Shown: one piece after another, positions 5,179-50,122 of the stretch
Numbering within the stretch: the stretch's first letter is position 1
Layout: each line of letters opens with the position of its first letter
Assembly: GCA_963756655.1 (NCBI GenBank)
Contig: CAVWOQ010000038.1
Span: 7,178-71,177, forward strand
DNA: 64,000 bases
Source of the DNA: an uncultured Solirubrobacterales bacterium
GTDB taxonomy: Bacteria > Actinomycetota > Thermoleophilia > Solirubrobacterales > Solirubrobacteraceae
Reading direction: 5' to 3'
Program-made: the position numbers and the translations under genes
The notes under the pieces: generated by a model
What the model was told of the DNA's origin: nothing
Database searches by the model: none
Seen by the model: the letters and a program-made list of their open reading frames with translations, nothing else

Positions 5179-5204
5179 CTACCCGGAGATGAAACGTGAG
5201 CAAC
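5179..5204 (-). promoter_or_regulatory. Putative SigB/SigF-type promoter GTTG-N16-GGGTAG
   Basis: Motif read on the minus strand, 50 nt upstream of ATG 5128. Confidence 0.45.
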
Positions 5205-5233
5205 ATGAAGGCTTTTAAAGAATCTGATCAGGC

Positions 5234-6125
5234 TTATGTTGGGGTGGCGCCGCCGGGCGGCTCGCGGTCGTCGTCGACTGACTCGATACCGGCCACGGTC
5301 GCGAGGCCGTTGGTTGCGTCGACGATCTCGTCCAGCTCGGACATCAGCGCCGCGCGCTGGTGGTCGTCGCTCGGCTTCTGCACGCGTTCGAAGCTCGTGT
5401 AGCTCGAGCGCAGATCAGGGACCGCGGTCGATTCGTCCGTGGCTGAATCGACAACCGCCGTGCCGACCAGCTCAAGCATCCGGGTGACGCCCCCGGCCAG
5501 CGGCGCAAGCGCCGGCAGCGGCGTCCGATCGCGGTCCTCCTGCGCCTCGAGCCGCAGGACCTGGACCGCCTGGACGAGCCGTCTGGTCGCGTCTAGCGCC
5601 GCCTGCGTGCGCCTTGGGTCGATCCTGTGAGCCGCGGGCTCTGCCAGCGATCGAGCGACCGTGGCCTCGGCGTTGGTGCGCGCCAGCCGCGCCTGTCGCG
5701 CCACGGGCCGGATCTCCTGCTCGCCGAGCCGGCGCCCATCGACCAATGCGTCGAGCACCGCGGCGGCGTAGGCGCGCAGCGCATCGAGCAGCTCTGCCAG
5801 CGCCTGGCGCGCGGGAATTCTCGACCAGGTCGGCCACAGCGCGTAGGCCAGCAGCCCGATCGAGGCCCCGACCAAGGTGTCGAGCAGCCGTGCGTACGCC
5901 CATCGTCACGCCCGCCACCGGCTGGCCGATCGCGAGTCCGCCACCTAGCACTGAGACCACCGGGATCGCCGCCAGCAGACCGCCCGAGACCGATACCAGC
6001 GAGCGATCGAAGTGGGCCGCGTCGCGGACGGCGACGGTCAGCGCCGCCGGTCGCGGGGAGTCTGGGCTCTGCTGCTCGTTGCTCCGCGACGACACGGGTG
6101 CGACAGTAGCCCGCCGAGCGTGCAT
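5234..6125 (-). pseudogene. FUSC-family membrane protein with a large internal deletion and frame change
   Basis: N-terminal part (DAAHFDRSLVSVSGGLLAAIPVV...VAGVTMG) joins in another frame to C-terminal ARLLDTLVGASIGLLAYALWPTW at about 5900; the start is uncertain. Confidence 0.7.
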
Positions 6126-6429
6126 GGGGGATCGCCCGGGTAAGGACGGTCTAGAGCCCGTCAGCCAGAGCAGGCGCGGATCGAGAACTTGAGCGCGACC
6201 TATCTGACGAGCGCGGCCTCCGCGGCGACGTAACGAGTCAGCATTCGGACAGGAGCCGGATTCCGCAACGTTTGTGTCCGACGGTACGGGTTGAACGCGG
6301 CCGCTCGCGGGCTAATAGTAAGAGTGACTTGCCCGCCGCGGGACGGGTGACGAATTGGTGTCGGGGTGTGTTGGCCGTCGCGGTAGGGCGCGGCGAACGA
6401 CTGCTCGGTGGTACTCGAAAGGACTGGTG

Positions 6430-7239
6430 ATGAATCCCGAACTTGCGGAGCGTGGGAGGGAACTCCACCACGGCGGCTCGCCGGGAACGGATTCGGCAGT
6501 GCTGCTCAGACGCTTGCGCGAGACCGGCGACCCGCGGGCGCGCGAGGAGCTCGTCGGGCGATTTCTGCCGCTGGCGCGCAAGCTGGCAGCTCGCTACATG
6601 AATCCGCTACGAACCGTTCGACGATCTGCTTCAGGTTGCAAGCATCGGGCTGCTCGGAGCGATTGACCGCTTTGATCCCGAGCGTGGCGTCGACTTCAAG
6701 TCGTTCGCGGTCCCGACAATCCTTGGCGAGCTGAAGCGGTACTTTCGGGGGACCGGCTGGTCGGCGCACGTGCCCAGACGAGCCCAGGAGCTCGCGCTGA
6801 AAGTCGACAAGGGAGTTCGCGAGATCTCGGCGACACTGGCGAGACGCCGAGTGTCGAGGAGCTCGCGTGTTATCTCGAGCTGACCACCGACGAGGTGCTG
6901 ACCGGCCTCGATGCCGGCCTCGCCCACTACTCGGTGTCGCTCGATGCGCCCGCGATTGGGTCGGCCGGCGACGCGGAACCCGAGCCGTTGGTCAATGGAC
7001 TCGGGCGCGAAGACGAGGGTTTCGGTCTGATGGAGAGCGCGGTCTCGCTCAACGCGGCGCTTGAGCAGCTCCCGCAGCTTGAGGCCGAAGCGCTCAACCT
7101 GAGGCTGAACCGCGATCTGAAGCAGACCGAGATCGCCGAGCTGCTGGGCTGCTCTCAGATGCAGGTCTCACGCCTGTTGCGGCGCGCTGCCGCGCGTGTC
7201 CGGGAGCTGATGGAAGGCAAACAGACATACGGGACGTAA
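6430..7239 (+). CDS. RNA polymerase sigma factor, SigB/SigF/SigG family (two apparent frameshifts, about 6607 and 6840)
   Basis: AREELVGRFLPLARKLA, EPFDDLLQVASIGLLGAIDRFDPERG, FAVPTILGELKRYFR, SLDAP, QTEIAELLGCSQMQVSRLL, spread over three frames. Confidence 0.85.
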
Positions 7240-7305
7240 GGCCGGTGCAGGCGGCGCGCAAAGCAAGCAGACGCTGAAGAACCTGCCCACGAGGGGCCAA
7301 AAGGG

Positions 7306-8277
7306 CTAGGTGACCCCCGCGCGAGTTTCAAAGCGCGGCAGGACGTGCTCTGCATACGCGGCGAAGAACGCGTCCTGCTCGGGTCCGATCTGATTGACGT
7401 AGAGCTCATCAAACCCGGCGTCTTCATACGCCTGGATCGCGCGCAGATGGCGGTCGACCGCGGGCCCGCAAGGCACATCGGCGGTGGCCTGATCGGTGCT
7501 CACGAGCTCAGAGGCCTGCTCGAAGTGCGCCGGGGTCGGCAGGATCTGCGCCAGTTCACCCGGGAGCCCCTCGTTGGCCCACAGTCGATGGACGAGCTCT
7601 CGGGCCTGATCCTCGTCTTTACCCCAGCACACCTTCAGGCCGCCCTGGATGAGCTTGCCGGCGCCACCGGCGGAGCGAAAGCGAGCAACCGACTCAGCGT
7701 CGGGCCCGACCGTGCAGTAGCCGTCGCCGACACGGGCCGCAAGATCGACCGCGCGCGGTCCGAAGCCGGAGACGATCACCTTCGGTGGCGCCTCGTGGAG
7801 GTCGTAGAGGCGGCAATGCTCGATCCGGTAGTGAGCGCCGCGATATTCCTGAACGCCTCCGCGCCATAGCCGGCGGATGAGTTCGATCGCTTCTTCAAGC
7901 ATCTCCAGGCGTTCGGCGGCACCCGGCCAACGGTCACCGAAGATGTGCTCGTTGAGCGCCTCGCCGCTGCCGACGCCGAGGTTGAAGCGACCATCGAGCA
8001 GAACGGCCGAGGTGGCCGCGGCCTGCGCGATGATCGCCGGGTGGATCCGCATCGTCGGGCAGGTGACGGCGGTTGTCACGGTCATTGCGTCGGTGGCCGA
8101 CGCGATCGCGCCGATCGTCGACCAGACGAATGGGCTGTGTCCCTGCGCGTCGTTCCAAGGATGAAAGTGGTCTGAGATCCAGAGGCGATCAAAGCCTGCC
8201 TGCTCAGCCTTGATCGCCTGCGCGACAAGGTCTTTGGGCCCCCACTCTTCGCTGGACAAGAAGTAGCCGAGTTTCAT
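7306..8277 (-). CDS. F420-dependent LLM-class oxidoreductase (G6PDH-like family)
   Basis: AGFDRLWISDHFHPW, HSPFVWSTIGAI, TAVTCPTMRIHPAIIAQAAAT, LGVGSGEALNEH. Confidence 0.9.
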   Translation of the reverse strand: MKLGYFLSSEEWGPKDLVAQAIKAEQAGFDRLWISDHFHPWNDAQGHSPFVWSTIGAIASATDAMTVTTAVTCPTMRIHPAIIAQAAATSAVLLDGRFNLGVGSGEALNEHIFGDRWPGAAERLEMLEEAIELIRRLWRGGVQEYRGAHYRIEHCRLYDLHEAPPKVIVSGFGPRAVDLAARVGDGYCTVGPDAESVARFRSAGGAGKLIQGGLKVCWGKDEDQARELVHRLWANEGLPGELAQILPTPAHFEQASELVSTDQATADVPCGPAVDRHLRAIQAYEDAGFDELYVNQIGPEQDAFFAAYAEHVLPRFETRAGVT

Positions 8278-8376: not shown

Positions 8377-8442
8377 CGTCGGGTTGCCGCCGGCGGCCGG
8401 TGTCGTGGGTTGCCGTCGTCGGGTTGCCGCCGGCGGCCGGTG
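8377..8442. repeat. 26-bp direct repeat (CGTCGGGTTGCCGCCGGCGGCCGGTG) x2, 40-bp period
   Basis: Copies at 8377-8402 and 8417-8442, with a partial GGGTTGCCG between them. Confidence 0.85.
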
Positions 8443-8447
8443 GGTAG
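8423..8447 (+). promoter_or_regulatory. Putative SigB/SigF-type promoter GTTG-N15-GGGTAG
   Basis: 9 nt upstream of the DUF6328 start at 8457. Confidence 0.5.
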
Positions 8448-8456: not shown

Positions 8457-8993
8457 GTGGCGTCTACGGTGAGCTCCACCAGAACCGATGACCGTGACGA
8501 GACGGCCGCCGAACGGCTCGATCGCAACACGATGGAGCTCCTCAACGAGCTGCGCGTCGCCGGAACCGGAATCCAGGTGATGTTCGCGTTCCTGTTGGTC
8601 GTACCGTTCAACACCGGGTGGCGGCACGTCTCGACGTTCGGACGCGCGATCTACTTCGCGTCGCTGCTGTGCGTGGCAGCCGCGGCGGTGCTGCTGATTG
8701 CGCCCTCGATCCAGCACCGGATCCTGTTCCGTCACAGGGAAAAGCGCTATCTGGTCGACACGGCGAACCGGATCGCGATCGTCGCGATGGTGTTCCTCGC
8801 CGCAGGCCTCACGGGGATCCTGATCCTGATCTCCGACGTCGTCGTCGGGGGGGCGGCTCCGTGGATCGTCGGCGCCTTGGCGGGGTTGGGGATCGCGGCG
8901 TTGTGGTTCGGCGTGCCAGTGAGCCGGATCGCGGAAGAACGACGCGTTGCCTCGCGCGACAGCGGCGTAGACTCGATCAGTGGAGGCCGGTAG
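8457..8993 (+). CDS. DUF6328-like membrane protein
   Basis: ETAAERLDRNTMELLNELRVAGTGIQVMFAFLLVVPFN followed by four hydrophobic helices. Confidence 0.8.
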   Translation: MASTVSSTRTDDRDETAAERLDRNTMELLNELRVAGTGIQVMFAFLLVVPFNTGWRHVSTFGRAIYFASLLCVAAAAVLLIAPSIQHRILFRHREKRYLVDTANRIAIVAMVFLAAGLTGILILISDVVVGGAAPWIVGALAGLGIAALWFGVPVSRIAEERRVASRDSGVDSISGGR

Positions 8994-9047
8994 CCAGACG
9001 GCGCCCGGGCAGTGGCCTCCAACGAAAGCGACCCTGGAGGTCATCTG

Positions 9048-10151
9048 ATGACGACTCCCCTGAAAGCCCTCGCCGAGCACGGTCAAAGCCCGTGGATCGA
9101 CTACCTGTCACGACCGTTCGTGCGCGACGGCGACCTCGCCGGACTGATCGACGACGGGATCGTCGGCGTGACCTCGAACCCGACGATCTTCCAGGGCGCG
9201 ATCGCCCAGGGGGACGCGTACGACGATCAGATGCGCGAGGTGCTCGCCGATCAGAGCGACCCCAAGGAGGTCTTCCTGGCGCTCGCACGCGACGACATCC
9301 GCGGCGCCTGCGACCTGCTGGCTCCGGTCTTCGATCGCGGTGACAAGACCCGCGACGGGTGGGTGTCGCTCGAGGTCGATCCAAATCTCGCCCATGATGC
9401 GCAGGGGACTGCCAAGGAGGCGCGCCGCCTGCACGAGATGGTCGACCGGCCCAACCTATTTGTGAAGATCCCCGGGACGCTCGAGGGGCTGGAGGCCATC
9501 GAGGAGACGATCGCGGCCGGGATCCCGGTCAACGTAACGCTGCTGTTCTCGCTCGATCGCCATCGCGCCGCCGCTGAGGCGTATCTGCGTGGGCTCCGGC
9601 GGCTCCGTGAGTCCGGCGGCGATCCGACGCGCGTCGCGTCGGTCGCGTCGTTCTTCGTCTCCCGGGTCGATACCGAGGCCGACAAGCGACTCGATCAGAT
9701 TGGCGGCCACGACGACCTCAAGGGCACGCTCGCGATCGCCAATGCAAAGCTCGCCTACCAGACCTATGAGCAGCTGTTCAGCGGCGACGACTGGGACGAG
9801 CTGAAGGCCGCCGGTGCCTCGCCGCAGCGGTGCCTGTGGGCGTCGACCTCGACCAAGAACCCCGCCTACCGCGACGTCCTGTACGTCGAGGAGCTGATCG
9901 GCCCGGCGACCGTCAACACAATGCCGCGCGAGACCGTCGAGGCGGTCCAGGACCACGGCCGGATCGAGCGGACGCTCGACCGCGACGTCGACGAGGCGCA
10001 CCGCACACTCGAGCGCTTCGCCGAAGCGGGTATCGATTACGACGACGTGGTCGCGGTGCTCGAGCGCGAGGGCGTCGAGAAGTTCGCCGCCTCGTTCAAA
10101 GAGCTGTTCGACGGCGTCGCGTCCAAGCGTGAGCAGCTGGTGGCCGCATAG
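9048..10151 (+). CDS. tal: Transaldolase (class with GQSPWID motif)
   Basis: GQSPWIDYLSR, GVTSNPTIF, VSLEVDP, NLFVKIP, VNVTLLFS, SVASFFVSRVD, LWASTSTKNP; GGAGG SD upstream. Confidence 0.95.
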   Translation: MTTPLKALAEHGQSPWIDYLSRPFVRDGDLAGLIDDGIVGVTSNPTIFQGAIAQGDAYDDQMREVLADQSDPKEVFLALARDDIRGACDLLAPVFDRGDKTRDGWVSLEVDPNLAHDAQGTAKEARRLHEMVDRPNLFVKIPGTLEGLEAIEETIAAGIPVNVTLLFSLDRHRAAAEAYLRGLRRLRESGGDPTRVASVASFFVSRVDTEADKRLDQIGGHDDLKGTLAIANAKLAYQTYEQLFSGDDWDELKAAGASPQRCLWASTSTKNPAYRDVLYVEELIGPATVNTMPRETVEAVQDHGRIERTLDRDVDEAHRTLERFAEAGIDYDDVVAVLEREGVEKFAASFKELFDGVASKREQLVAA

Positions 10152-10195: not shown

Positions 10196-10219
10196 GTGAG
10201 AACACGGGTCTGCGGGTAG
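10196..10219 (+). promoter_or_regulatory. Possible SigB/SigF-type promoter GTGA-N14-GGGTAG
   Basis: Lies upstream of the SDR-GH15 operon. Confidence 0.35.
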
Positions 10220-10288: not shown

Positions 10289-11299
10289 GTGAGGGACGGC
10301 CAGCAGCCGGAGGTTGTGGTTGTGACGGGGGCTTCAGGTGGCGTCGGGCGCGCGATCGCGCACGCGTTCGCCAAGCGCGGTGCCCACATCGGGCTGGTGG
10401 CGCGCGGTGAGCAGGGCCTCGACGAAGCCCGCCGCGAGGTTGAGCAACTCGGCGGCCAGGCGCTCGTCGTGCCCACCGACGTGGCGCTCGCCGATCAGGT
10501 CGAGGCCGCCGCCGAGGCGGTCGAAGACCGCTTCGGGCCGCTGGACACATGGGTAAACGATGCGATGGCGACCGTGTTCGCGCGGGTCGTCGACATGAAC
10601 GCCGACGAGTTCAAACGCGCGACCGAGGTCACGTATCTGGGGACCGTGTACGGGACGATGGCGGCGCTGAAGCGGATGACCGCGCGCGACCGCGGAACGA
10701 TTGTCCAGGTCGGATCCGCCCTGTCTTACCGAGCGATCCCGCTACAGGCGGCCTACTGCGGTTCGAAGTTCGCGATCCGCGGCTTCACGGACTCGATCCG
10801 CTCCGAGCTGCTGCACGACAAGAGCAGCGTTCACATCACGATGGTGCAGCTCCCGGGCGTCAACACGACCCAGTTCAACTGGTGCCGTTCGAAGCTGCCG
10901 GATCATCCGCAGCCGGTGCCGCCGATCTACCAGCCAGAGATCCCGGCCGAAGCGGCCTACTGGGCCGCGCATCACCGCCGTCGCGAGCTGTGGGTCGGTT
11001 ACAGCGCGGTCGAGGCGATCGTCGGCAACAAGATCGCGCCCGGGTTCGCGGACCGCTATCTGGCACACAAAGCATTCTCGGGGCAGCAGGTGAAGAACAT
11101 GCCGGTGTCGCCAGACCGCCCGGACAACCTGTTCGAGCCCGTCCCGGAGCTCGCCGCGACGCACGGGATCTTCGACGACCGCGCCAAGCGCCGCAGCCCG
11201 CAGCTGTGGGCCAACACGCACCGTGCGCTGCTGGCCGGAGCGGCTGCCGTTGGCGCGGTCGCCGGCGCGGCCGGGTTCGCCGCTGCCCGCGCTCGATGA
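10289..11299 (+). CDS. SDR family oxidoreductase
   Basis: VVTGASGGVG, WVNDA, YCGSK (YxxxK), C-terminal membrane anchor. Confidence 0.92.
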   Translation: MRDGQQPEVVVVTGASGGVGRAIAHAFAKRGAHIGLVARGEQGLDEARREVEQLGGQALVVPTDVALADQVEAAAEAVEDRFGPLDTWVNDAMATVFARVVDMNADEFKRATEVTYLGTVYGTMAALKRMTARDRGTIVQVGSALSYRAIPLQAAYCGSKFAIRGFTDSIRSELLHDKSSVHITMVQLPGVNTTQFNWCRSKLPDHPQPVPPIYQPEIPAEAAYWAAHHRRRELWVGYSAVEAIVGNKIAPGFADRYLAHKAFSGQQVKNMPVSPDRPDNLFEPVPELAATHGIFDDRAKRRSPQLWANTHRALLAGAAAVGAVAGAAGFAAARAR

Positions 11300-13066
11300 A
11301 TACCGCCGGTCCGGCCGCGAACGTCAGCGTGCCGCACATCCTGCGCGAGTACGCGCTGATCGCAGACGGCGAGCGCGGGGCACTGGTTGGTCCGCGCGGC
11401 GACTACACCTGGATGTGCTTTCCGCGCTGGGACTCCGACGCGTGCTTCGCGACGCTGATCGGCGGCGCCGGGACATACGCGGTGACGCCCGACGCGCGCT
11501 TCGTCTGGGGCGGCTACTACGAGCACGGGCTGATCTGGTGCAGCAGGTGGGTGACAGACGGCGGGCTGATCGAGTGCCGCGAGGCGCTGGCGCTGCCCGG
11601 TCACCCGCAGCGGGCCGTGCTCCTGCGCCAGATCCGCGCCGTGACGGGGGCGGCACGCGTCAACGTCGTATTGGATCTGCGGACCGAGTTCGGTGCCAAG
11701 CGCGTCACACATCTGCGGCTCGACGACGGCGGGGTCTGGCACGGTCGGCTCGCCGGCGCGCAGGTCAGTTGGAGCGGGGGCGAGCGCGCAAAGCCGGTCG
11801 ACGAAAATGGCGGCCGCCCGTTGGCGATGACCGTCGCGCTCGAGCAGGGGGAGGTTCACGACCTGGTGCTGGTGCTCGATGCGGGCGCCGATCCCGAGCC
11901 GGTCCCCGAACGCCGCGCGCGCGTGGTCTGCGACCGAGGCGGCGTGGCGCGACTGCGTCCCCGAGCTCGAGTGCGCGGTCGGGCAGCGCGACGCGCGGCA
12001 CTCGTATGCGGTGCTGAAAGGGCTGACCAGCGCCGGCGGCGGGATGGTCGCGGCGGCCACGATGTCGCTGCCTGAGCGCGCGCGGGAGGGCCGCAACTAC
12101 GACTACCGCTACGTCTGGGTGCGCGACCAGTGTCTGACCGGGCAGGCGGTGGCGAAGGCCGGCCCGCATCCACTGCTGGACGACGCGGTCCGGTTCGTGT
12201 CCGAGCGGCTGCTCGACGACGGGCCAGACCTAGTCCCCGCCTACACGACCGACGGCGGCAGCGTCCCCAACCAGCGGAGCCTCGGCCTCCCCGGCTACCC
12301 CGGGGGCACCGACGTCGTCGGCAACTGGGTCAACCGCCAGTTCCAGCTCGACGCGTTCGGCGAGTCGTTGCTGCTGTTCGCGGCGGCCGCCGGCCACGAC
12401 CACCTCGACGCGGACGGGTGGCGCGCGGTCGAGGCGGCGGTCGCGGCAATCGAGCAGCGCTGGCGCGAGCCCGATGCGGGGATCTGGGAGATCGAGCCCG
12501 ACAACTGGACCCACAGCCGGCTGATCTGCGCCGCTGGGCTGCGAGCGATCGCTTCGCACCAGCCGTCTGAACGGGCGGCAGCGTGGTCGTCGCTGGCGGA
12601 CGTGATCGTCGCCGAGACCTCGGCGACCGCGATGCACCCGGAGGGCCGCTGGCAGCGCTCGCCGAGCGACGATCGAGTCGACGCGGCGCTGCTGCTGCCC
12701 GCGATCAACGGCGCGATCGCGTCCGACGATCCCCGTTCGCTGGCGACCTTGCACGCGGTCGAGCGAGAGCTCGCCGATGACGGTTACTGCTACCGGTTCC
12801 GCCCCGACGCCCGCCCGCTGGGCGAGGCGGAGGGCGCGTTCGTGCTGTGCGGCTTCCTGGTCGCGCTGGCCTGGGATCAGCAGGGCGACCAGGTTCGCGC
12901 TGGGCACTGGTTCGAGCGCAACCGTGCGGCATGCGGGCCGGCTGGCTTGATCTCGGAGGAGTTCGATGTCGCCCAACGCCAGCTCCGTGGCAACCTCCCG
13001 CAGGCGTTCGTGCACGCCGCGCTACTCCAATGCGCGATGACGCTGCACGGAGACGGCCGCTCATGA
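11296..13066 (+). CDS. Glycoside hydrolase family 15 (glucoamylase/trehalase-like), frameshift at about 11905
   Basis: YALIADGERGAL, WMCFPRWDS; then MVAAATMSLPE..RNYDYRYVWVRD, DAGIWE, SEEFD..LRGNLPQAFVH in the second frame. Confidence 0.88.
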
Positions 13067-13426: not shown

Positions 13427-13451
13427 GTTAGTCGTCGATCGCAGCGGGTAA
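13427..13451 (+). promoter_or_regulatory. Putative SigB/SigF-type promoter GTTA-N15-GGGTAA
   Basis: 35 nt upstream of the oxidase/bc operon start. Confidence 0.5.
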
Positions 13452-13486: not shown

Positions 13487-14518
13487 GTGTCAATCCCTGT
13501 TCGTCAACGCCGCCACCGCAACCGGCGACTAGCCGTCGCAGGCGCGACGGCGGCCGCCGGCGCGCTGCTCGCCGGCTGCGGCAAGCAGTCGATCCTCTCG
13601 ACCCACAGCCCGCAGGCGCACAACATCATGCTGCTGTGGTGGTGGATGTTGGGAGCCGCGGTGATCGTGTTCACCGGGGCGGTGGTGATGCTGGTGATCG
13701 CGTACTTGCGCCGGGGAACGGCGGGACTGCCGATCTTCGGCCAGCGCGAGAGCGTCGCCGAAGGGATGGTGCTGGTGTTCGGTCTCGCGATCCCGGTGGT
13801 CGCACTGGTGGCGCTGTTCGGGGTCGCGAACGTGTACCTGATCCGCCAGACGTCGCCGCCAGCACCGGCGAGCACGGCGATGACGATCGACGTGATCGGC
13901 CATCAGTGGTGGTGGGAGGTCCGCTACCCGGGGACCGACGCCGTCACCGCGAATGAGATCCACATCCCGGTCGACACGCGTGTCAACGTCGTGGCGACGA
14001 CCGCCGACGTGATCCACAGCTTCTGGGTACCGGCGCTGAACCGCAAGATCGACATGATCCCCGGGCGCCGCAATCGGATTCTGCTATACGCCTCGAGCCC
14101 GGGCGTCTACCGCGGGCAGTGTTCGCAGTTCTGTGGTCTGCAGCACGCGCACATGGCACTGTACGTGTTCGCGCAGCGACCGCCGCGATATCGAGCGTGG
14201 CTGGCCAACATGGCGTCCGCGGCGAGGGTCCCGATGACTGCCGCGGCGCGGGCCGGCGAGCGGCTGTTCATGGGCAGCCAGTGCGCGAGTTGCCACCGGA
14301 TCGCGGGCACCCCGGCGCAGGGCGACGTCGGCCCCGACCTGACGCACGTCGCGACCCGCACGACCCTGGCCGCGCTGACGATCCCCAACACGCCGAATTG
14401 GCTGGCGGCGTGGATCCGCAACCCGCAGGCGATCAAACCCGGCGACCTGATGCCCGACCTGGGGCTGTCGGCGAGCCAGGTCTCATCGCTGGTCGCGTAC
14501 GTGGAGACCTTGAAGTAG
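13487..14518 (+). CDS. ctaC: Cytochrome c oxidase subunit II with fused C-terminal cytochrome c (caa3 type), lipoprotein
   Basis: Lipobox LLAGC; GHQWWWEVRY; DVIHSFWVP; CuA motif CSQFCGLQHAHM; heme c CASCH; MPDL. Confidence 0.93.
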   Translation: MSIPVRQRRHRNRRLAVAGATAAAGALLAGCGKQSILSTHSPQAHNIMLLWWWMLGAAVIVFTGAVVMLVIAYLRRGTAGLPIFGQRESVAEGMVLVFGLAIPVVALVALFGVANVYLIRQTSPPAPASTAMTIDVIGHQWWWEVRYPGTDAVTANEIHIPVDTRVNVVATTADVIHSFWVPALNRKIDMIPGRRNRILLYASSPGVYRGQCSQFCGLQHAHMALYVFAQRPPRYRAWLANMASAARVPMTAAARAGERLFMGSQCASCHRIAGTPAQGDVGPDLTHVATRTTLAALTIPNTPNWLAAWIRNPQAIKPGDLMPDLGLSASQVSSLVAYVETLK

Positions 14519-21532: not shown

Positions 21533-21557
21533 GTGACGTTTAGCGCTGACCGGGTAC
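21533..21557 (+). promoter_or_regulatory. Putative SigB/SigF-type promoter GTGA-N15-GGGTAC
   Basis: 10 nt upstream of ATG 21568. Confidence 0.45.
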
Positions 21558-31560: not shown

Positions 31561-31563
31561 CGC

Positions 31564-34516: not shown

Positions 34517-34524
34517 GCGAGTCG

Positions 34525-42397: not shown

Positions 42398-42421
42398 GTG
42401 AACCACCTCGCGAGCGGGTAG
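42398..42421 (+). promoter_or_regulatory. Putative SigB/SigF-type promoter GTGA-N14-GGGTAG
   Basis: 10 nt upstream of ATG 42432. Confidence 0.45.
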
Positions 42422-42431: not shown

Positions 42432-42659
42432 ATGACCGTAGTCGACCTGTTCACGCGGCTCGAAGTTCCGCAGCCGACCGAGCCACCGACGCCGGTGGTC
42501 CCCGACGCCCCGGTGACCCCGATCGATCCCGACCCTGGCACCCCGGCCGACCCCGCGGAGCCGCTGATCGTGCCGGTGCCGCAGGAGGAGCCGACGCCGG
42601 TCGATCCGGAGACGAACCCGCAGCCCGAGCCTGAACCCGAGCCGGACGCCGCAGCCTAG
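42432..42659 (+). CDS. Small Pro/Glu/Asp-rich, probably disordered protein
   Basis: MTVVDLFTRLEVPQPTEPPTPVVPDAP...PEPEPEPDAAA; promoter match upstream. Confidence 0.55.
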   Translation: MTVVDLFTRLEVPQPTEPPTPVVPDAPVTPIDPDPGTPADPAEPLIVPVPQEEPTPVDPETNPQPEPEPEPDAAA

Positions 42660-44299
42660 TAGCGCGTGAGCATCGAGCGTCCTCGGCCAAGGCGGAGCGA
42701 GGCGAGCGGAGGGCGCTCTGAAACCGGGATCGAGGCTATCGCGCCGTCCGCCCACGGCCGTCGATAGGTGCCGCCGATCACAGCGTGGTGGTCGCGTCGG
42801 CACTCGACGGCCGCCAGCACCGCGTAGGCCATCTCACCCAGCGCGCGCAGTGGCTGGTGGCGATTCTGGCGGCTGCCGAGGTCGCACTCCGCGAGCGCAT
42901 CGAGGCCGTCGCGACGCAGTGCGTCGATCAGGACCGCGATCTCGACCCCGTACCCGCTCGGGAACGGGATCGCCTCCAGCAGCGATCGGCGGGCGGACAG
43001 CTCGCCGGCCAGCGGCTGCGCAAACCCGGCCAGCCGCGGCTGATGCATGTTGAGCAGCGGGCGCGCCATCAGCTCGGTGACGCGGCCGCCCTCGTTGGGG
43101 AGGCTGGCGCCGCCTGCCTGCCGTGGCCGCTCAAACGCCCCCTTGACGAGTTGCACGCCGTCGTCGCTGAGGATTGGCCCGAGCAACCCCTGCAGGTGAA
43201 GCGGGTCCGGATCCTGCGTGTCGCCGTCGAGAAAGCAGACGACATCGCCAGCGGTGATGCTCAGCGCGCGCCACATAGCGTCGCCCTTGCCGAGTGCCGG
43301 ACCCCAATCGTCCATGATCTCGTCCTGATCAACCGTCGTCGCGCCCGCCGCGGCGGCGACGGCGGCGGTCCCATCGACCGAGCCGGCGTCGACGACGATC
43401 AGCTCGTCGACGAGCCCATGCTCCGACAGCGGGCCGACCGTATGGCGCAAGATCGCCTCGATCGTGTCGGCGCACTCCTTGGTCGGGATCACGACGCTGA
43501 CCGATGTCGCCCCCTTGTGGGCAGCGAGCGATGAGAGGCTGAACTCGGCGGCGCGATAACGCCGGTGCTCGGCCCATAGCGAGACCTCGAGATCGACGGA
43601 CAGGCCGTGGGCGACCCGGCCCTGCGACCGTGCCGAAGTACGGACCCTGACGTCGCGCACGCGCCGGATCCGCACCCGGTGCTCTCCGAGGCGCCTGGCG
43701 AATGCAGCGTCCTCGAGCGCCGCCAGCGGCTCGAGGCCGCCGACTGCACGGTAGGTGGCGGCGGTGACCGCGAGCGAGGCGCCGGCGAAATGGTGATGCT
43801 CGGCTGCTGGGTCCAGACGCCGCACGCGCGCGAGCCGCTGTGCGGCGTCGCGTTCGCGGCGGGCGAGGACCGCGGCCGGCAGGTCCGCTTGCTGCGCCGG
43901 TTCGAGCTCGATCAAGCCGGCGATCGCGGTCGCGCCATCGCGGGCGTGGGCCAGCTGGCGCTCGAGCCAGTCGGGCGCCGGCCGCGAGTCGGCGTCGGTG
44001 CAGGCGATCAGCCCGTCGTTCGCGCCGAGCGCGAGCAGGCGCGCTGCGGCGGCGTCCATTCCCAGGCGCCGCGCGGCGCCCGAGCCCCCGCCCGGGCCAT
44101 CGAGCATCGTGATCGGCAGCTCGTTGCGCGTCGCGAAGCCGGCGACGACCTCGCGGGTGGCGTCCCGGCAGGCATCGATCACGACGATTGTCTCAAAGCT
44201 CTGGCGGCCGATCGTCTGGGAGGCCAGTGCCTGCAAACAGCTCGCGATCGTGTGTTCCTCGTCGCGCGCCGGGATCACGACGATGCATTTCAGCTCCAT
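42656..44299 (-). CDS. gpgS: Fusion: N-terminal GT2 glycosyltransferase + glucosyl-3-phosphoglycerate synthase domain
   Basis: N: VIPARDEE, CTDADS, HHHFAGAS; C: GKGDAMW, FLDGD, GGRVTELMARP, QPLAGE, YGVEIAVLID. Confidence 0.85.
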   Translation of the reverse strand: MELKCIVVIPARDEEHTIASCLQALASQTIGRQSFETIVVIDACRDATREVVAGFATRNELPITMLDGPGGGSGAARRLGMDAAAARLLALGANDGLIACTDADSRPAPDWLERQLAHARDGATAIAGLIELEPAQQADLPAAVLARRERDAAQRLARVRRLDPAAEHHHFAGASLAVTAATYRAVGGLEPLAALEDAAFARRLGEHRVRIRRVRDVRVRTSARSQGRVAHGLSVDLEVSLWAEHRRYRAAEFSLSSLAAHKGATSVSVVIPTKECADTIEAILRHTVGPLSEHGLVDELIVVDAGSVDGTAAVAAAAGATTVDQDEIMDDWGPALGKGDAMWRALSITAGDVVCFLDGDTQDPDPLHLQGLLGPILSDDGVQLVKGAFERPRQAGGASLPNEGGRVTELMARPLLNMHQPRLAGFAQPLAGELSARRSLLEAIPFPSGYGVEIAVLIDALRRDGLDALAECDLGSRQNRHQPLRALGEMAYAVLAAVECRRDHHAVIGGTYRRPWADGAIASIPVSERPPLASLRLGRGRSMLTRY

Positions 44300-45459
44300 G
44301 ATGCCCCGCCTGCGATCAGCTTCTGGCCGCGCTCGTATGCGTCGTCGAGTTCGTGGCTGAGGACCCCGACGAGCCGGGATTCGCGTCCATACCAGGCGCT
44401 GAATGACCCGTCTGACCCGCGCTCGAACCGGACCTCGTCATAGCCGTCGCCCCACGCGGCGTACTTGAGCGTCCGGCGCCCGATCGTCGACCAGAAGCCG
44501 GGCACGTCGTCCCAGCTGGCGTCAACCCCGGCAGCCGTCCGCCCAGCCACGCGGCCCTGCCCCAGGGCGTCGCCCCAGTGCTCGACGCGAAGCCTCCTTC
44601 CGGCCGCGACGTTCTCCGCCAGCGCGACGTCGCCAGCCGCCAGCACCCCGGCGGCCGACGTGCGCATGCCGGCGTCAGTGGGCACGGCACCGTCTTCGAT
44701 GTCCAAGCCCGCCGCGATCGCGAGATCGGATCGAGGCGAGACACCGGTCGCCATCACGACCAGATCACCGCCCGCCTGGCCGTCGCCGGTGTAGACCTCG
44801 AGCCGGCCGCCGGCTTGGGCGATCTTCGTGACCTCGGCCCCGAGCGCGAGCTCGACACCCAGGTCGTCGAGCCAGCCGGTGATCTCCGCCGCAGCCTGCG
44901 CGCCGAGGCGGCGCTCGTTGGGCGCTGGTTCGTCGGATACGAGCACCACCGGGTGACCGAGCAGGCGCAGCGAGGCCGCGATCTCGCAGCCGATGAATCC
45001 AGAGCCGACGACCACGACCGCGAGCCCCTTCTCGAGCTCGCTTCGCAGGTCGCGCAGATCGTCGAGCGAGCGCAGCACGCGAACGCGCGGGTCGTCGTTG
45101 CCCGGCACCGGGAGTCGCTTCGGCTCGGCGCCCGGTGCGAGTAGGCAGCTGGTGTAGCTCAGCGGCCGGCCTCCGGACAGCGTGACTTCGCGCTTGGTCG
45201 GGTCAAGCGCCACCGCACGGGCGCCGACGAGCCCGATCCTCTGCTCTACGAACCACCGTTCCTCCTCGAGCGCGAGCTCGCTCTCGCTGATCTCACCGCG
45301 GAGCAGGTCCTTGCTCAGCGGCGGCCGGTTGTACGGGATCCGTCGCTCCTCGCTGACCAGGGCGACCGGCCCCTTCCCGCCCGCCTGGCGGTAGGCGCGC
45401 GCGGCCGCCAGCCCGGCCGGGCCGCCGCCGATGACCAGCAGCTCGTAGTCGCTGCTCAC
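44290..45459 (-). CDS. FAD/NAD(P)-dependent ferredoxin-reductase-type oxidoreductase
   Basis: IGGGPAG, YNRPPLSK, VVGSGFIGCEIAASL, VLAAGDVA, RVEHW. Confidence 0.9.
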   Translation of the reverse strand: MSSDYELLVIGGGPAGLAAARAYRQAGGKGPVALVSEERRIPYNRPPLSKDLLRGEISESELALEEERWFVEQRIGLVGARAVALDPTKREVTLSGGRPLSYTSCLLAPGAEPKRLPVPGNDDPRVRVLRSLDDLRDLRSELEKGLAVVVVGSGFIGCEIAASLRLLGHPVVLVSDEPAPNERRLGAQAAAEITGWLDDLGVELALGAEVTKIAQAGGRLEVYTGDGQAGGDLVVMATGVSPRSDLAIAAGLDIEDGAVPTDAGMRTSAAGVLAAGDVALAENVAAGRRLRVEHWGDALGQGRVAGRTAAGVDASWDDVPGFWSTIGRRTLKYAAWGDGYDEVRFERGSDGSFSAWYGRESRLVGVLSHELDDAYERGQKLIAGGASWS

Positions 45460-46025
45460 GTCCGCTCCAATGCGTCGAGCAGGTAGTCGTCGGTCGTCGT
45501 GGAGGCGCGCGGCGCGAGCCATGGCTGGGCTCTGAGCGCCGAGTGGACCTGCGCGGCGGTGAACGGACGGTCGCGACCCGCCGGGCGCCAGTGCACGGCG
45601 ACGAGCCGGCCGCCCGGCCCCAGCACCCGCGCCAGCAGCGCGAGCGTCGCTTCAAGACTCTCGGGGCCGAGGTAATAAAGGATCTCCGAGGCAACGACGA
45701 GGTCGTAGCGCCGGCGCGGAACATCGTCGGGGATCGTGCCCACGATCACGTTGACCAGATCGGAGCCGCCGAGCCGCGATCGTGCCGCCGCCACCGCCGT
45801 CGGAGCGCCGTCGATCGTCGTCAAGCGCCGGCAGCGCGGTGCGAGCTGCTGACTGAACACGCCAATCGAGCCGCCCAGCTCGAGCGCACTCGAAAACGGC
45901 CCCGGTCCGCACGCCGCGAGCGTCGCCGTGTATTTGTCGCGCTCGTACGAGGAGCTCTGATAGCCCCACGGATCGGGGTCGGCGCGGTAGCGCGCCTCGA
46001 ATTCTGCCGGCGTCATCGCAGTCAT
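45456..46025 (-). CDS. NodS-like SAM-dependent methyltransferase
   Basis: FEARYRADPDPW..SSYERDKY, ALELGGSIG, VASEILYY, LVAVHW. Confidence 0.88.
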   Translation of the reverse strand: MTAMTPAEFEARYRADPDPWGYQSSSYERDKYTATLAACGPGPFSSALELGGSIGVFSQQLAPRCRRLTTIDGAPTAVAAARSRLGGSDLVNVIVGTIPDDVPRRRYDLVVASEILYYLGPESLEATLALLARVLGPGGRLVAVHWRPAGRDRPFTAAQVHSALRAQPWLAPRASTTTDDYLLDALERT

Positions 46026-47143
46026 CGCGCCGGCGGCTCGGTTCGACCTGCTGCCTGCTCGAGGGCGGCGGCGCCGGCCTGGGCCAGCAGCGGATCGAGC
46101 CGGTGCTGGAGCAGGAAGACCTCGAGGTCGCGCCGCGCGCGGTCCAAGCTGCCGCCGCGCGCAAATGGCCGCGAGCCGCATGCGCGCGCGGCTTCGTCGA
46201 GCAGCGCCCGGCAGGCGTCCGAAATGCAAGCGCGTGCGTGCAGGGCGACCGCCGCGAGATCCGGGCCCGACTCGTCCATCTTCCGGGCGGCCACATCGAG
46301 CCACGCGGAGATCGTCTGCTGTGCGGTCAGCATCCGCCCGGCAGCCAGTTCTTCCAGCGCTCCGCGGCTCGGCCGCGCGGCGAGCTCGTCGATCGCCGCA
46401 CCGACGGCGGTATCCGCCATCCCGGCCCATGAGGCAGCCGTTCGCAGCGCGTCGCGGCCGAACCACGGTTGCGCTGAGATGCCGCCGGGTGGGCCGAGGC
46501 GGGCGAGCACCGGCGCGTCCTCGAACACGACCCGGTGCGAGACTGACGCCCGCAAGCCATGGGACTGATACCAGCTCGGGTCGATCCCGACCCGGCGCGA
46601 GTCGCTGACGTCGACCCAGGCCGAGACCGGCGGGCCGCCGTCCTCGGGTCGCCCGAGAACCAGCGCGCGGTGAATGCCGCCGGCGCCCGAGCAGAAGGTC
46701 TTGACGCCCCGCAGGAACTGCTTGCCGCCACGTGCGATGACGGTTGCCGGCGGACCCTCGCCCGCGACCGGGTCACCGCCCCAGACGCCGGCGCGCAACT
46801 CGCAGCGACTGATCGCTGCGAGCTCACGCTCGGCGAGCTCCGGCGGGCCCTGGACGATCAGTCGTTCGATCGCGTTAAGGTGGCCGTCGAAGATCCTGCC
46901 GACCGCCCCATCGGCACGAGCGACCTCGCGGACCAGGCGCAGTTCGTCGGCGGCGGGCGGGCGTCCCCGCCCGGGTACGGCGTTGAAGGTGGTCGCCCCG
47001 GCGCGCTCGAGCTCGATGAAAGCGGCCTCGGGAAACGCCGGGCTGGGCTCGGCGTCACGCTCATGCGCTGTCTTGCGGATCCGGTGCAGCGCCGCCTCCA
47101 GGGTCATCTCCGAAGGCGCTTTGGCATGCGCGAGCCGGGTCAC
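46022..47143 (-). CDS. Acyl-CoA dehydrogenase-like protein
   Basis: GRIFDGHLNA, GVKTFCSGAG, GLRASVS, ACGSR, RDLEVFLLQ. Confidence 0.82.
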   Translation of the reverse strand: MTRLAHAKAPSEMTLEAALHRIRKTAHERDAEPSPAFPEAAFIELERAGATTFNAVPGRGRPPAADELRLVREVARADGAVGRIFDGHLNAIERLIVQGPPELAERELAAISRCELRAGVWGGDPVAGEGPPATVIARGGKQFLRGVKTFCSGAGGIHRALVLGRPEDGGPPVSAWVDVSDSRRVGIDPSWYQSHGLRASVSHRVVFEDAPVLARLGPPGGISAQPWFGRDALRTAASWAGMADTAVGAAIDELAARPSRGALEELAAGRMLTAQQTISAWLDVAARKMDESGPDLAAVALHARACISDACRALLDEAARACGSRPFARGGSLDRARRDLEVFLLQHRLDPLLAQAGAAALEQAAGRTEPPAR

Positions 47144-47712
47144 GCCAATGCCTTCAGCGAGATCCCCGACCGCTGCGCGTGGTCGATGACCAGCTTCGCG
47201 TACGCGACCGTCTCCTCGGCGCCCCTGCGGAGCGCGCCCGGACCGATGCCGTCGTGCGCGAGCACGACCGCGCCGGGCTCGAGCGACTGCCGTGTCGAGG
47301 CGAACATGTCGTCGGCGCGATCGCCGCGCCAATCGTTGGTGTCGACACTCCAGCCGACCAGCCGGAGCCTGCGCTCGTGCGCGATCTGGCACGTCCATGG
47401 AGCTATGTCGCCCCAGGGCGTTCGCCACAGAACCGGGTCGACGCCGAGGTCCGCGAGACGCTGCAAGGCTCGATCAGCGTCGCGTGCGCACCACGCCTTG
47501 TCGCGGCTGCTGTGTCGCACATGCTGGTCGCAATGCAAGCCGACGGCGTGCCCTTCGCGAACCATCCGCTCGATCAGTGCCGGGTGCGCTGGGGCGCGCG
47601 GAGCGATCACGAAGAACGTCGCCGTGGCCGCGGCCTCACCCAGGAGGTCGAGCAGCATCGGCGTATAGCGGCAATCGGGGCCGTCGTCGAAGGTCAGCGC
47701 AAGCGCCCGCAC
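47140..47712 (-). CDS. Polysaccharide deacetylase (NodB/CE4 family)
   Basis: LTFDDGP, ATFFV, LHCDQH, WRTPWG, WSVDTNDW, VLAHD; start at GTG 47712 (TTG 47721 is an alternative). Confidence 0.88.
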   Translation of the reverse strand: MRALALTFDDGPDCRYTPMLLDLLGEAAATATFFVIAPRAPAHPALIERMVREGHAVGLHCDQHVRHSSRDKAWCARDADRALQRLADLGVDPVLWRTPWGDIAPWTCQIAHERRLRLVGWSVDTNDWRGDRADDMFASTRQSLEPGAVVLAHDGIGPGALRRGAEETVAYAKLVIDHAQRSGISLKALA

Positions 47713-47721: not shown

Positions 47722-47747
47722 ATACCCGCTCGACGCCGCTTCATCAC
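47722..47747 (-). promoter_or_regulatory. Putative SigB/SigF-type promoter GTGA-N16-GGGTAT
   Basis: 9 nt upstream of GTG 47712. Confidence 0.5.
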
Positions 47748-47772
47748 GCGCGCAGCTCTAGGATCGTGATGG

Positions 47773-48426
47773 ATGCCGACCGCCGTCCTCGACATCGACG
47801 GGACGCTCGTCGACACCAACTACCACCATGCGCTGGCCTGGTTCAGGGCCCTTTGCGAGTTCGAGCTCGTGCTCCCGATCTGGCGCATCCACCGCCATCT
47901 CGGGATGGGCGGCGACCAGATGGTCGTCGCCCTGTGCGGCGATCGGGTCGAACGTGACAACGGGGATGCGATCCGCGAGGCCGAGGGAAGCCGCTACGGG
48001 GAGCTGATCGGAGAGGTGCGGACGATGGTTGGGTCGCGAGAGCTGATCCTTGCGCTCAAGGAGCGTGGACACACGGTCGTGCTCGCCAGCTCGGCCAAGG
48101 CCGACGAGGTTGAGCACTACGTCGAGCTGCTCGACGCCCGCGATCTGGTCGATGGGTGGACCACGTCGGCCGACGTCGAGTCGACCAAGCCCGCGCCTGA
48201 TCTCGTCCACGCCGCGCTCGAGCGAGTAGGCGGCGGCGCCGATCAAGCGGTGATGGTCGGCGACACCCCGTGGGATGTGAAAGCCGCCGCCGCGGCGGGG
48301 GTGCAGACGCTCACGGTGGTGACCGGTGGCTTCAGCGAGCAGGAGCTGCGCGATGCGGGCGCGGCGGCGGTGTTCGAGTCGGTCGCCGAACTCTGCGACC
48401 GACTCGACGAGACGCCGTTGCACTGA
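47773..48426 (+). CDS. HAD family hydrolase
   Basis: LDIDGTLVD, KPAPD, VGDTPWD. Confidence 0.92.
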   Translation: MPTAVLDIDGTLVDTNYHHALAWFRALCEFELVLPIWRIHRHLGMGGDQMVVALCGDRVERDNGDAIREAEGSRYGELIGEVRTMVGSRELILALKERGHTVVLASSAKADEVEHYVELLDARDLVDGWTTSADVESTKPAPDLVHAALERVGGGADQAVMVGDTPWDVKAAAAAGVQTLTVVTGGFSEQELRDAGAAAVFESVAELCDRLDETPLH

Positions 48427-48434
48427 GTGTTCTG

Positions 48435-49967
48435 CTAGGCGGGCCTTGGGCTCCGTTTGGTGGTCACCGTCGCTGCGTGCTGCACGCCGCTGCGCGCCGC
48501 GCTCGTTACTGCGGTGAGCGGTGCGGCGATGCTCTCGAGCCCTCGGCGCTCTGCCTTGACCCCGTAGACGATCTCGACCAGGCCGCCGACGATCATCAGG
48601 ATCGCACCGATGGAGAGGGCAAAGAACACGTCAGAGGTGTTGCCCGTCGGCACCAGCCGACCGAACAGCTGCGGCCCGATGATGCCGCCGATCCCCGTGC
48701 CGACCGCGTAGAACAGGGCGATCGCCAACGCGCGGGTCTCCAGCGGGAAGATCTCACTGACGGTCAGGTACGCGGCGCTCACACCTGCGGAGGCGAAGAA
48801 GAACACCACGCTCCAAGCGATCGTGAGCGTCGTCGCGTTCAGCTGATGCTGATCGAACATGTAGCCGGTGATCAGCAACAGCACGCCCGAGAGAATGTAG
48901 GTTCCCGCGATCATCGGCTTGCGGCCGACACTGTCGAACAGGGGACCGAGGATGATCGGCCCGAGCAGGTTGCCGACCGCGAACGCGACCAGGTAGTACG
49001 GCGCATCGGCGGTGGCGACGCCGAAGAAAGTGCTGAGCAGGGTCGCGTAGCCGAACAGAATCGCGTTGTAGAGGAACGCCTGGCCGATGAACAGGGCAAG
49101 GCCAAGCACGGTCCGCTTCGGGTAGGTCTTCACGATCGCGCGCGAGATCTCCCACAGGCCGATCGACTTTCGCTGCTTGATGGTGATCGTCTCGTCGGGG
49201 TCGTCGAGCTGCGCGCCGGTGCTCTCCGCCACCTGGTGTTCGATGTCCTGCGTCACCTCCTCAGCCTCGTCTTCGCGGCCGTGGATGAACAGCCAGCGAG
49301 GGCTCTCAGGGACGCTCCGGCGGACGATCAGGATCGCGGTTCCGAGGATCGCGCCGAGCCCGAAGCAGACCCTCCAGCTGAGCAACGGAGAGAAGATGTG
49401 CAGCGCCGCCACCGACAGCAGCGCGCCCGCTGCCGCCCCGAGCCAATAGGTCCCGTTGATCAGAATGTCGATCCGGCCGCGGTGTTGGGCCGGGATCAGC
49501 TCGTCGATCGCGGAGTTGATCGCCGAGTACTCGCCGCCGATACCCATTCCGGTCACGAACCGGCAGGCAAAGAAGAACAGCGGCGTCCATGCGAAGGCGG
49601 TCGCGATGGTCGCTGCCAGATAGACGCCGAGCGTGACCATGAACAGGCGCTTTCGTCCGAACATGTCGGTCAGGCGGCCGAATAACAGCGCTCCCACGCA
49701 CGCGCCCGCCACGTACATCGATGCCGCCCAGCCAGCGATGTCGGCGGCAGAGATGTTGATGCCACTGCCCTTGGCGGAGATTGCCCCCGCGATCGAGCCG
49801 ACGACCGTCACCTCAAGACCATCGAGAATCCAGACCGTTCCCAGCCCGATGAGGATCTTCCAATGCCAGCTCGACCACGGCAACCTGTCCAGCCGTGCCG
49901 GGATATTGGTCTCAATGGTCCCTAGTTCGTGGCCCGTGCCCGTGCGTGTGGCTGTAGCTGTCGCCAT
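48435..49967 (-). CDS. MFS transporter (sugar/organic-ion type)
   Basis: ARLDRLPWS, DMFGRKRLF, GIGGEYSAINSAIDE, VPESPRWL, SEIFPLETRA. Confidence 0.92.
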   Translation of the reverse strand: MATATATRTGTGHELGTIETNIPARLDRLPWSSWHWKILIGLGTVWILDGLEVTVVGSIAGAISAKGSGINISAADIAGWAASMYVAGACVGALLFGRLTDMFGRKRLFMVTLGVYLAATIATAFAWTPLFFFACRFVTGMGIGGEYSAINSAIDELIPAQHRGRIDILINGTYWLGAAAGALLSVAALHIFSPLLSWRVCFGLGAILGTAILIVRRSVPESPRWLFIHGREDEAEEVTQDIEHQVAESTGAQLDDPDETITIKQRKSIGLWEISRAIVKTYPKRTVLGLALFIGQAFLYNAILFGYATLLSTFFGVATADAPYYLVAFAVGNLLGPIILGPLFDSVGRKPMIAGTYILSGVLLLITGYMFDQHQLNATTLTIAWSVVFFFASAGVSAAYLTVSEIFPLETRALAIALFYAVGTGIGGIIGPQLFGRLVPTGNTSDVFFALSIGAILMIVGGLVEIVYGVKAERRGLESIAAPLTAVTSAARSGVQHAATVTTKRSPRPA

Positions 49968-50097
49968 TGTCGACCTCCTTGGTGTTGCCCCGACAACGGG
50001 GTGCTACCCGAGTCCCGCGGCAGACATGCGGCGGCGCTGTGTCACAGATCGGACCGATTGACAGCGCTCCGACTAAGGGTCACTTGAGGGCGCGGGC

Positions 50098-50122
50098 GTG
50101 TACGGGCGGCCAGTACGGGTAG
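50098..50122 (+). promoter_or_regulatory. Putative SigB/SigF-type promoter GTGT-N15-GGGTAG
   Basis: 60 nt upstream of the PfpI-family gene. Confidence 0.45.

Follow-up and report, generated by a model that had tools for sequence, protein, structure and literature searches.

In Mycobacterium smegmatis, SigF promoters follow the consensus GTTT-N14-19-GGGTA, with GGGCA and GGGAA as variants of the second box; many of these sites lie 8-11 nucleotides (nt) from a start codon, and the promoter of sigF itself is located about 1 kb upstream of the gene (PMC4694148). Promoters of the SigB homologues of Streptomyces coelicolor show an invariant GGG and an A at position 5, together with GTTT or GNNT at -35 (PMC8346170), and the title of one paper ties mycobacterial SigF to respiration-inhibitory conditions (PMC7693655). 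Here we analyzed a two-box motif of this type that recurs in a 64,000-nt stretch of DNA (hereafter, the window; positions 7178-71177 of contig C38, 68-72% G+C) from an uncultured bacterium of the order Solirubrobacterales (class Thermoleophilia, Actinomycetota). The window belongs to a metagenome-assembled genome (MAG) derived from soil, which is 4.44 Mb in size, consists of 42 contigs and is 94% complete. With a probability of about 85%, the sites are SigB/SigF (group 3, general-stress) promoters that are used by a sigma factor of the SigB/F/G family. A literature search found no paper on sigma regulons in Solirubrobacterales.

We quantified the motif in the window, whose genes were called by a codon-usage model trained on the window itself and annotated with Pfam and NCBIfam. 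The original prediction had listed eleven sites matching the loose pattern GT[T/G]N-N14-16-GGG[T/C/A]AN, each of which was recovered to the nucleotide. In intergenic DNA, the loose pattern had 11 matches against 2 for the reversed control. The stricter pattern GTK-N15-17-GGGTA matched 12 times against once for the reversed control, and 10 times against 0 in intergenic DNA; those 10 matches all faced a gene. When the intergenic DNA (4.46 kb) was simulated with a first-order Markov model, the mean number of matches was 0.29 against 9 observed, and none of 1000 simulations reached 9. In addition, an unbiased k-mer scan ranked GGGTA first among 5-mers for intergenic enrichment, with 15 of its 36 copies falling in 6.7% of the window (p = 3.7e-9); among 6-mers, CGGGTA and GGGTAG led. 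The signal was judged to be real. Twelve of the 15 intergenic GGGTA copies point at a gene no more than 300 nt away, and the remaining three lie in the leader of an EamA gene (28235, minus strand), opposite a gene end (42386, minus strand) and as an orphan (51307, plus strand).

The -35 box was then derived independently of the window. Specifically, a matrix was built from 122 unique sites in relatives, anchored on GGGTA only and with the window excluded. The resulting profile was flat except for a peak at -20 to -16 (G-G-T-K-T), a C at -1 (79/122) and a G at +5 (90/122), and refinement with a variable spacer yielded sGTKTs-N13-16-cGGGTAg. The matrix from relatives therefore gives back the mycobacterial SigF and Streptomyces SigB consensus, supporting the promoter class that had been proposed. 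T was depleted at +8, where a SigA-type TANNNT box would need it, which ruled out a housekeeping TANNNT reading of GGGTAGnnT. The spacers between the two boxes diverge freely among orthologues. When scored with this matrix, intergenic GGGTA copies in the window had better -35 boxes than coding copies (median 3.78 versus -0.39, p = 5e-5). Nine of the eleven originally listed sites have GGGTA at -10. Counts do not distinguish the two variants, GGGCAT at 8288 and GGGAAG at 33743, from chance matches. No other -35 box in the window scores as high as theirs (p = 0.008 and 0.003, respectively), and both variants are conserved in relatives. Three sites were absent from the original list, namely 6120 (plus), 50005 (minus) and the orphan at 51307 (plus).

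The gene-facing sites are given below. Note that the coordinates of minus-strand sites take in the sixth base of the -10 hexamer.

5179-5204, minus strand: GTTGCT-N15-GGGTAG, candidate promoter 51 nt before the gene (4970-5128) of a 52-amino-acid (aa) CPHC/TM small protein; -35 p = 0.047.
6120-6143, plus strand: GCGTGC-N15-GGGTAA, candidate 287 nt upstream of the sigma gene, with a weak -35 (p = 0.15); kept in a duplicate on contig C4.
8288-8313, minus strand: TGTTAG-N15-GGGCAT, leaderless geometry, 10 nt before the ATG of an F420-dependent LLM oxidoreductase gene (7306-8277); -35 p as above.
8423-8447, plus strand: GGTTGC-N14-GGGTAG, leaderless geometry, 9 nt before the GTG of DUF6328; DUF6328-transaldolase operon (8457-10151).
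10196-10219, plus strand: GGTGAG-N13-GGGTAG, 70 nt before a short-chain dehydrogenase/reductase (SDR) gene (10289-11299), which is followed by GH15 at 11879-13066.
13427-13451, plus strand: CGTTAG-N14-GGGTAA, 36 nt before ctaC; operon of caa3-type oxidase, qcr (bcc) and ctaG (13487-21519).
21533-21557, plus strand: AGTGTG-N16-GGGTAC, leaderless geometry, 10 nt before the ATG of a CsbD-like 164-aa protein (21568-22062).
29092-29117, plus strand: CGTTAC-N15-GGGTAG, leaderless geometry, 9 nt before the GTG of mnhE; Mrp antiporter cluster (29127-33773).
33743-33767, plus strand: CGTTTA-N14-GGGAAG, 12 nt before the GTG of Holin-X; Holin-X-DUF3618-DUF892 operon (33780-35139); -35 p as above.
42398-42421, plus strand: CGCGTG-N15-GGGTAG, leaderless geometry, 10 nt before the ATG of a 75-aa Pro-rich open reading frame (ORF; 42432-42659).
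47722-47747, minus strand: cGTGAt-N15-GGGTAT, leaderless geometry, 9 nt before the GTG of a polysaccharide deacetylase gene.
50004-50030, minus strand: CGCATG-N15-GGGTAG, candidate 37 nt before an MFS transporter gene (48435-49967); -35 p = 0.07.
50098-50122, plus strand: CGTGTA-N14-GGGTAG, 61 nt before a PfpI/DJ-1 gene (50183-50768).

The ctaC operon has Pfam matches to COX2+Cytochrom_C and CtaG, and the deacetylase gene opens an operon (42656-47712) in the order deacetylase-ACAD-NodS methyltransferase-reductase-GT2::GpgS. The CsbD/MBP-1 matches of the CsbD-like protein are weak. The 75-aa ORF has 22 metagenomic homologues, but is of low complexity.

Next, we examined whether the sites are kept at orthologous genes. 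For this footprinting, orthologues of the downstream genes were taken from other genomes of the order and genus (up to 80 genus genomes), and the DNA upstream of them was inspected. As background we used 525 neighbouring genes in the same loci, 27.6% of which carry GGGTA within 150 nt upstream; this value is about 4 times the compositional expectation, indicating that the promoter class is common here. GGGTA(G/A/T/C) was found 35-77 nt upstream of PfpI in 30 of 30 orthologous loci (p ~1e-17 versus background), and GGGTA(G/A/T) upstream of the deacetylase, the first gene of the GpgS operon, in 29 of 30 (p ~1e-15). The ctaC promoter was represented by GGGTA(A/G) in 8 of 11 CtaC orthologues (2e-3); in five of them the site lies 35-39 nt upstream and is preceded at N15-16 by a -35 box of the GTTT type. 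For MnhE, 11 of 18 orthologues had a promoter footprint (3e-3); GTT(A/T)..GGGTAG is kept at the start codon in the three nearest, and GGGTA(T/C) 9-10 nt before a start codon in two that are more distant. GGGTA also occurred upstream of 16 of 26 homologues of the CsbD-like gene, mostly at 28-71 nt (3e-4). For SDR, GGGTAG was present upstream of 14 of 30 orthologues (2e-2), the closest relative having GGTGAC..GGGTAG at 72 nt. DUF6328 showed GGGTAG and a GSTTG box 15-16 nt upstream of it in 24 of 59 loci, mostly 9-10 nt before the start (2e-2). These results agree with the original prediction in that the oxidase/bc, Mrp and GpgS operons have conserved promoters of the SigB/SigF class.

The two variant sites and the weaker ones were followed in the same way. 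Upstream of Holin-X, the closest relative keeps GTTTA-N14-15-GGGAA/GGGCA, as do about six others, and three more have GGGTA. Upstream of the LLM oxidoreductase gene, L001 has TGTTAGC-N15-GGGCAT-N9-ATG, L053 has GGGTAG and others have GATTAC-N15-GGGCA(G/T). The 52-aa protein is conserved (31 homologue clusters), and in four out of six distinct lineages its gene is preceded by GGGTA(G/T), the position of which varies; this is moderate comparative support. The promoter class of DUF6328 is swapped between lineages; several orthologues (L016, L019, L021, L022, L027 and L031) have a GCGTAGGCT (TANNNT-type) box with a Shine-Dalgarno sequence and no leaderless GGGTAG. Given these boxes, the housekeeping promoter class looks ordinary in this order.

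The regulon had been described as largely leaderless. All six gaps of 9-10 nt on which this description was based (before the starts at 8277, 8457, 21568, 29127, 42432 and 47712) were correct, and the geometry extends to seven units with Holin-X (12 nt); "largely" is too strong, as only about half of the promoters are arranged in this way. In relatives, the gap between the hexamer and the first in-frame start was 9-11 nt for the deacetylase in 18 of 27 loci, and spurious in-frame GTG codons explain most of the other loci; it was 9-10 nt for DUF6328 in 9 of 21 loci and for MnhE in 3 of 6. The conserved 9-10 nt gap implies that the mRNAs of six to seven operons would be leaderless. PfpI, ctaC, SDR and the 52-aa small-protein gene have leaders of 36-70 nt, and the motif is therefore a promoter element that is not tied to leaderless starts.

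To consider which sigma factor may use these promoters, we characterized the sigma gene of the window:

6430-7239, plus strand: sigma gene of the SigB/SigF/SigG family with Pfam regions r2, r3 and r4, split into three frames by two assembly indels.

The original prediction treated this gene as one that needs repair. Contigs of four short-read (Illumina) runs drop one base at 6608 and show a net +1 at 6834-6837. Furthermore, window 5897-7639 recurs at the end of contig C4 (L062/L121) as a copy of 98.5% identity in which the sigma frame is intact (302 codons); the sigma copy is 96% identical to that of the window. Because the run contigs differ exactly at the frame breaks and the C4 copy is intact, the sigma gene is no pseudogene; the frameshifts are assembly errors, and a broken sigma factor was ruled out. 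The C4 copy is either strain-variant redundancy or an unresolved contig overlap, and it inflates genome-wide site counts by two. The corrected sigma factor scored 211 bits with SigF and 165 bits with NCBIfam Sigma_B, and the solved structures nearest to it are the sigma chains 8x6g_H and 1l0o_C. The genes of the window that were scanned with Pfam include no anti-sigma or antagonist next to it. GGGTA was present upstream of 8 of 14 sigma orthologues, mostly at 110-137 nt and at irregular positions, and autoregulation via the weak 6120 site is possible.

The genome has 35 sigma-70 region-2 matches and about four distinct SigB/F/G paralogues. Two TIGR02980 matches exceed the cut-off, with 271.7 and 259.7 bits; another two to three, including that of the window, score 215-223 bits. 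The two best-scoring paralogues are divergent genes 3 kb apart on contig C15 (L060/L061, 219-224 kb) and are conserved across the genus. The sigma gene at C15:223070 adjoins an RsbW-like kinase gene (HATPase_c_2 with an extra C-terminal domain) and a PP2C (SpoIIE) gene, and that at C15:219257 lies in the order topoisomerase IB-sigma-STAS antagonist-PAS-GAF protein, where the topoisomerase IB gene has a leaderless GGGTAG promoter. The C15 sigma loci of this genome carry GGGTA sites, and orthologues of the C15-type paralogues have a conserved GCTTGA-N15-cGGGTAT just upstream.

Among the alternatives, the one that survives best concerns the driver, namely that the window's own sigma factor (6430-7239) is dedicated to these promoters and forms with them a self-contained sigma-plus-regulon module. 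We regard it as doubtful. The position of the sigma gene within the cluster and the GGGTAA site upstream of it speak for this alternative, as does the concentration of sites in the window, which holds 12 matches against 3.1 expected (1.4% of the genome, ~218 matches in total; P = 1e-4). The genome-wide view consists of pattern counts and a sample of the first 29 matches, eight of which were intergenic, two of these being the C4 duplicate of the window. By this sample, the intergenic share was 10/12 in the window versus 6/27 elsewhere (P = 5e-4), and the window would hold roughly a fifth of the candidate promoters of the genome. Moreover, at least nine relatives have the same target genes no more than 30-80 kb apart, and several of these clusters include a SigB/F/G gene; examples are G017:C48 at 137-175 kb, which is collinear with the window, G036:C6, G011:C10, G034:C10 and G021:C8. 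However, a close orthologue of the local sigma factor (best E <= 1e-90) occurs in only 13 of 80 genus genomes, yet the PfpI promoter is kept in all 29 loci from other genomes, 18 of which are from genomes without that orthologue. The missing anti-sigma neighbour, the weak -35 box and the 287-nt distance of the sigma gene's own upstream site, and the recognition of such promoters by several SigB homologues in S. coelicolor (PMC8346170) also argue against a dedicated driver.

Given that the promoters persist without the local sigma factor and that cross-recognition occurs, the driving sigma factor cannot be assigned, and assigning the regulon to the local sigma factor is unprovable and conflicts with presence and absence across genomes. 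The original prediction had named the sigma factor at 6430 "or a paralogue" as the driver; the hedge proved necessary. Elsewhere in the genus the paralogues at least suffice, and cross-recognition by several of them is likely. Most probably, the partner-switch-controlled C15 pair are the main drivers, with the local "orphan" sigma factor as a possible additional one.

The conserved neighbourhood also allows a broader proposal, which we put forward tentatively. The region may be a stress/dormancy island of 30-80 kb that recurs in at least nine genomes and unites a SigF-like sigma factor lacking an anti-sigma with operons that it drives or co-drives. A whole respiratory chain would then be under a general-stress sigma factor, and the local sigma factor would act as a feed-forward amplifier below the partner-switch-controlled paralogues. 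If true, the operons of the island would include a dedicated alternative respiratory supercomplex (caa3-type oxidase with haem c and bcc), the Mrp antiporter and a glucosylglycerate-type solute pathway. Close orthologues of the caa3-bcc operon were found in just 10 of 60 relatives searched, all in the genus, indicating an accessory respiratory chain; the remaining relatives have CtaC at only about 30-40% identity.

A second alternative is that the two-box motif is a transcription-factor operator, or a promoter of another sigma class such as an extracytoplasmic function (ECF) or lineage-specific housekeeping variant. The high frequency of GGGTA upstream of neighbouring genes in the genus leaves some room for it, as the dependence on a SigB/F/G-type sigma factor is deduced. 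This alternative is nevertheless very improbable; a spacer fixed at 13-16 nt and a distance of 9-10 nt, likewise fixed, to leaderless starts are promoter geometry, the consensus equals the experimentally defined SigF/SigB consensus, and the motif is unlike both TANNNT, boxes of which occur at other orthologues, and the ECF consensus GGAAC..CGT. Finally, that the matches are chance hits of a degenerate pattern, as flat total counts in the window and the genome might suggest, is refuted for the class as a whole by intergenic enrichment, orientation, co-occurrence of the -35 box and conservation in up to 30 of 30 genomes.

Several results weigh against our assignment of the sites to SigB/SigF-type promoters and a SigB/F/G-family sigma factor. 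Over both strands of the window, the loose pattern had 25 matches against 26 for the reversed control. Likewise, the genome-wide counts of the two-box pattern were 109+109 against 138+138 for the reversed control, so that a genome-wide excess was not found and the signal resides in intergenic placement, not in totals. Outside intergenic DNA, most matches are due to chance, and the weak single sites at 6120, 50005 and 5179 may be as well; the caution in the original prediction that single sites may be chance matches still holds for these and for 51307. The presence counts for DUF6328 and SDR are just modestly above the background of 27.6%, and the support for these two comes from positional conservation. 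The corrected sigma factor scored 222.9 bits on NCBIfam SigBFG, just under the cut-off of 234.35. In addition, the only RNA runs contain just 4-5% of the sampled words, and the transcription starts at these sites are thus predicted.

Taken as SigB/SigF-type promoters, the sites suggest the following mechanism. A SigB/F/G-family sigma factor would bind s-G-T-K-T-s at -35 and, across a spacer of 13-16 nt, c-GGGTA-g at -10, and would thereby direct RNA polymerase to at least 12 transcription units in a 45-kb stretch. At six to seven units, where the -10 element ends 9-12 nt before the start codon, the transcript would begin from or next to the start codon without a leader or a Shine-Dalgarno sequence. 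The units would comprise the caa3-oxidase/bcc, Mrp and GpgS glycoconjugate operons, PfpI, the CsbD-like gene and DUF6328-transaldolase, and further Holin-X-DUF3618-DUF892, the F420-dependent oxidoreductase and SDR with GH15. By analogy with the described regulons, we infer that these operons would be induced by stress.

Several other features of the window were recorded. The contigs of the four short-read runs differ from the assembly by single-base indels at window 6152, 6214, 6608, 6834-6837, 50074 and 50433; the indel at 50433, which breaks the PfpI frame, is absent from the contigs of all 4 runs and is an assembly error. As these indels break both the sigma and the PfpI frames, the assembly has errors of the long-read type, and any further apparent frameshift in this region is suspect. 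A FUSC-like membrane protein gene (5234-6125, minus strand) lies in two frames with a break near 5890, which is probably another indel error; in L333, its orthologue beside the same small-protein gene carries a FUSC annotation. Just past the 52-aa gene, a perfect 11-bp inverted repeat (GGAAGTGTCCG/CGGACACTTCC; 4932-4957, minus strand) is a likely terminator. Farther on is a sugar-porter remnant (4706-4861, minus strand), which comprises the first 51 codons only and is overlapped by a convergent gene of the enolase superfamily; the syntenic relative L333 has a 461-aa Sugar_tr gene at its place. A GGGTAG without a -35 box is found at 4890 (minus strand), 28 nt upstream of the remnant, and a tRNA as its explanation was rejected, there being no tRNA there.

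The orphan site (51287-51312, plus strand; GGCTTA-N14-GGGTAG) is well formed and has no plausible ORF downstream, its neighbours being an inorganic pyrophosphatase gene and, on the minus strand, an ORF of 91 aa; a small RNA or an antisense RNA might be transcribed from it, or it may be a chance match. The site in the leader of the EamA gene (28235-28260, minus strand; CGATTG-N14-GGGTAG) faces a NicO-Fur-like operon 260-330 nt off. Rfam gave no family at the gathering score anywhere in the window, and an ARAGORN call of tRNA-Ser at 39393-39481 (plus strand), within an MMPL gene, is most likely a false positive.

These results would extend the SigF/SigB general-stress regulon and its leaderless geometry from mycobacteria and streptomycetes to Thermoleophilia, which are abundant in soil and almost uncultured. 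The motif sGTKTs-N13-16-cGGGTAg is sharp enough to fix ambiguous start codons in these MAGs, and could be used to predict stress-responsive genes such as those of the accessory respiratory chain, the Mrp antiporter and the GpgS operon. Testable hypotheses can thereby be framed on the survival of these soil bacteria under drying, salt or low oxygen.

Compared with described systems, the locus adds a new, well-supported example to a known kind of regulon, with no new mechanism. It is similar to the SigF systems of M. smegmatis and M. tuberculosis, which are controlled by partner switching through RsbW/UsfX and RsfA/RsfB, in its two-box consensus, its GGGCA/GGGAA variants and its predicted leaderless promoters. 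The target types also overlap; those of SigF include oxidoreductases, SDR, transporters, a Na+/H+ antiporter, topoisomerase I, ChaB and anti-sigma genes (PMC4694148), and both hosts are actinobacteria with several RsbW/STAS-type regulators. The present host differs in belonging to the class Thermoleophilia and in being uncultured, and the system is described here from sequence. Furthermore, the base that follows GGGTA is preferentially G (GGGTAG), GGTKT/GSTTG occurs more often as the -35 box and the local sigma gene has no adjacent anti-sigma gene. Unlike in mycobacteria, the targets include a whole caa3-bcc operon, an Mrp cluster and a GpgS operon, and they are strongly clustered in one conserved neighbourhood.

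S. coelicolor SigB and its eight homologues (GNNT/GTTT-N12-16-GGGTAY) resemble the present set in that there are several paralogous SigB-like sigma factors per genome, and in that the -10 box has a nearly invariant GGG and an A at position 5 and the -35 box (GTTT or GNNT) is less conserved. Promoters of that set are cross-recognized, so that a promoter cannot be given to one sigma factor by its sequence (PMC8346170). The number of paralogues is about four here versus nine in S. coelicolor, the present set is not known to have a developmental or sporulation context, and our comparison is one of sequence analysis. The SigB regulon of Bacillus subtilis (GTTTAA-N12-14-GGGWAW) shares the sigma family and partner switching of the RsbW/RsbV/PP2C type. 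CsbD- and PfpI-type genes are members of that regulon as well. In contrast to B. subtilis, the present locus has a longer spacer, a high-GC context and predicted leaderless mRNAs, and its sigma gene is not part of an rsbV-rsbW-sigB operon in the window.

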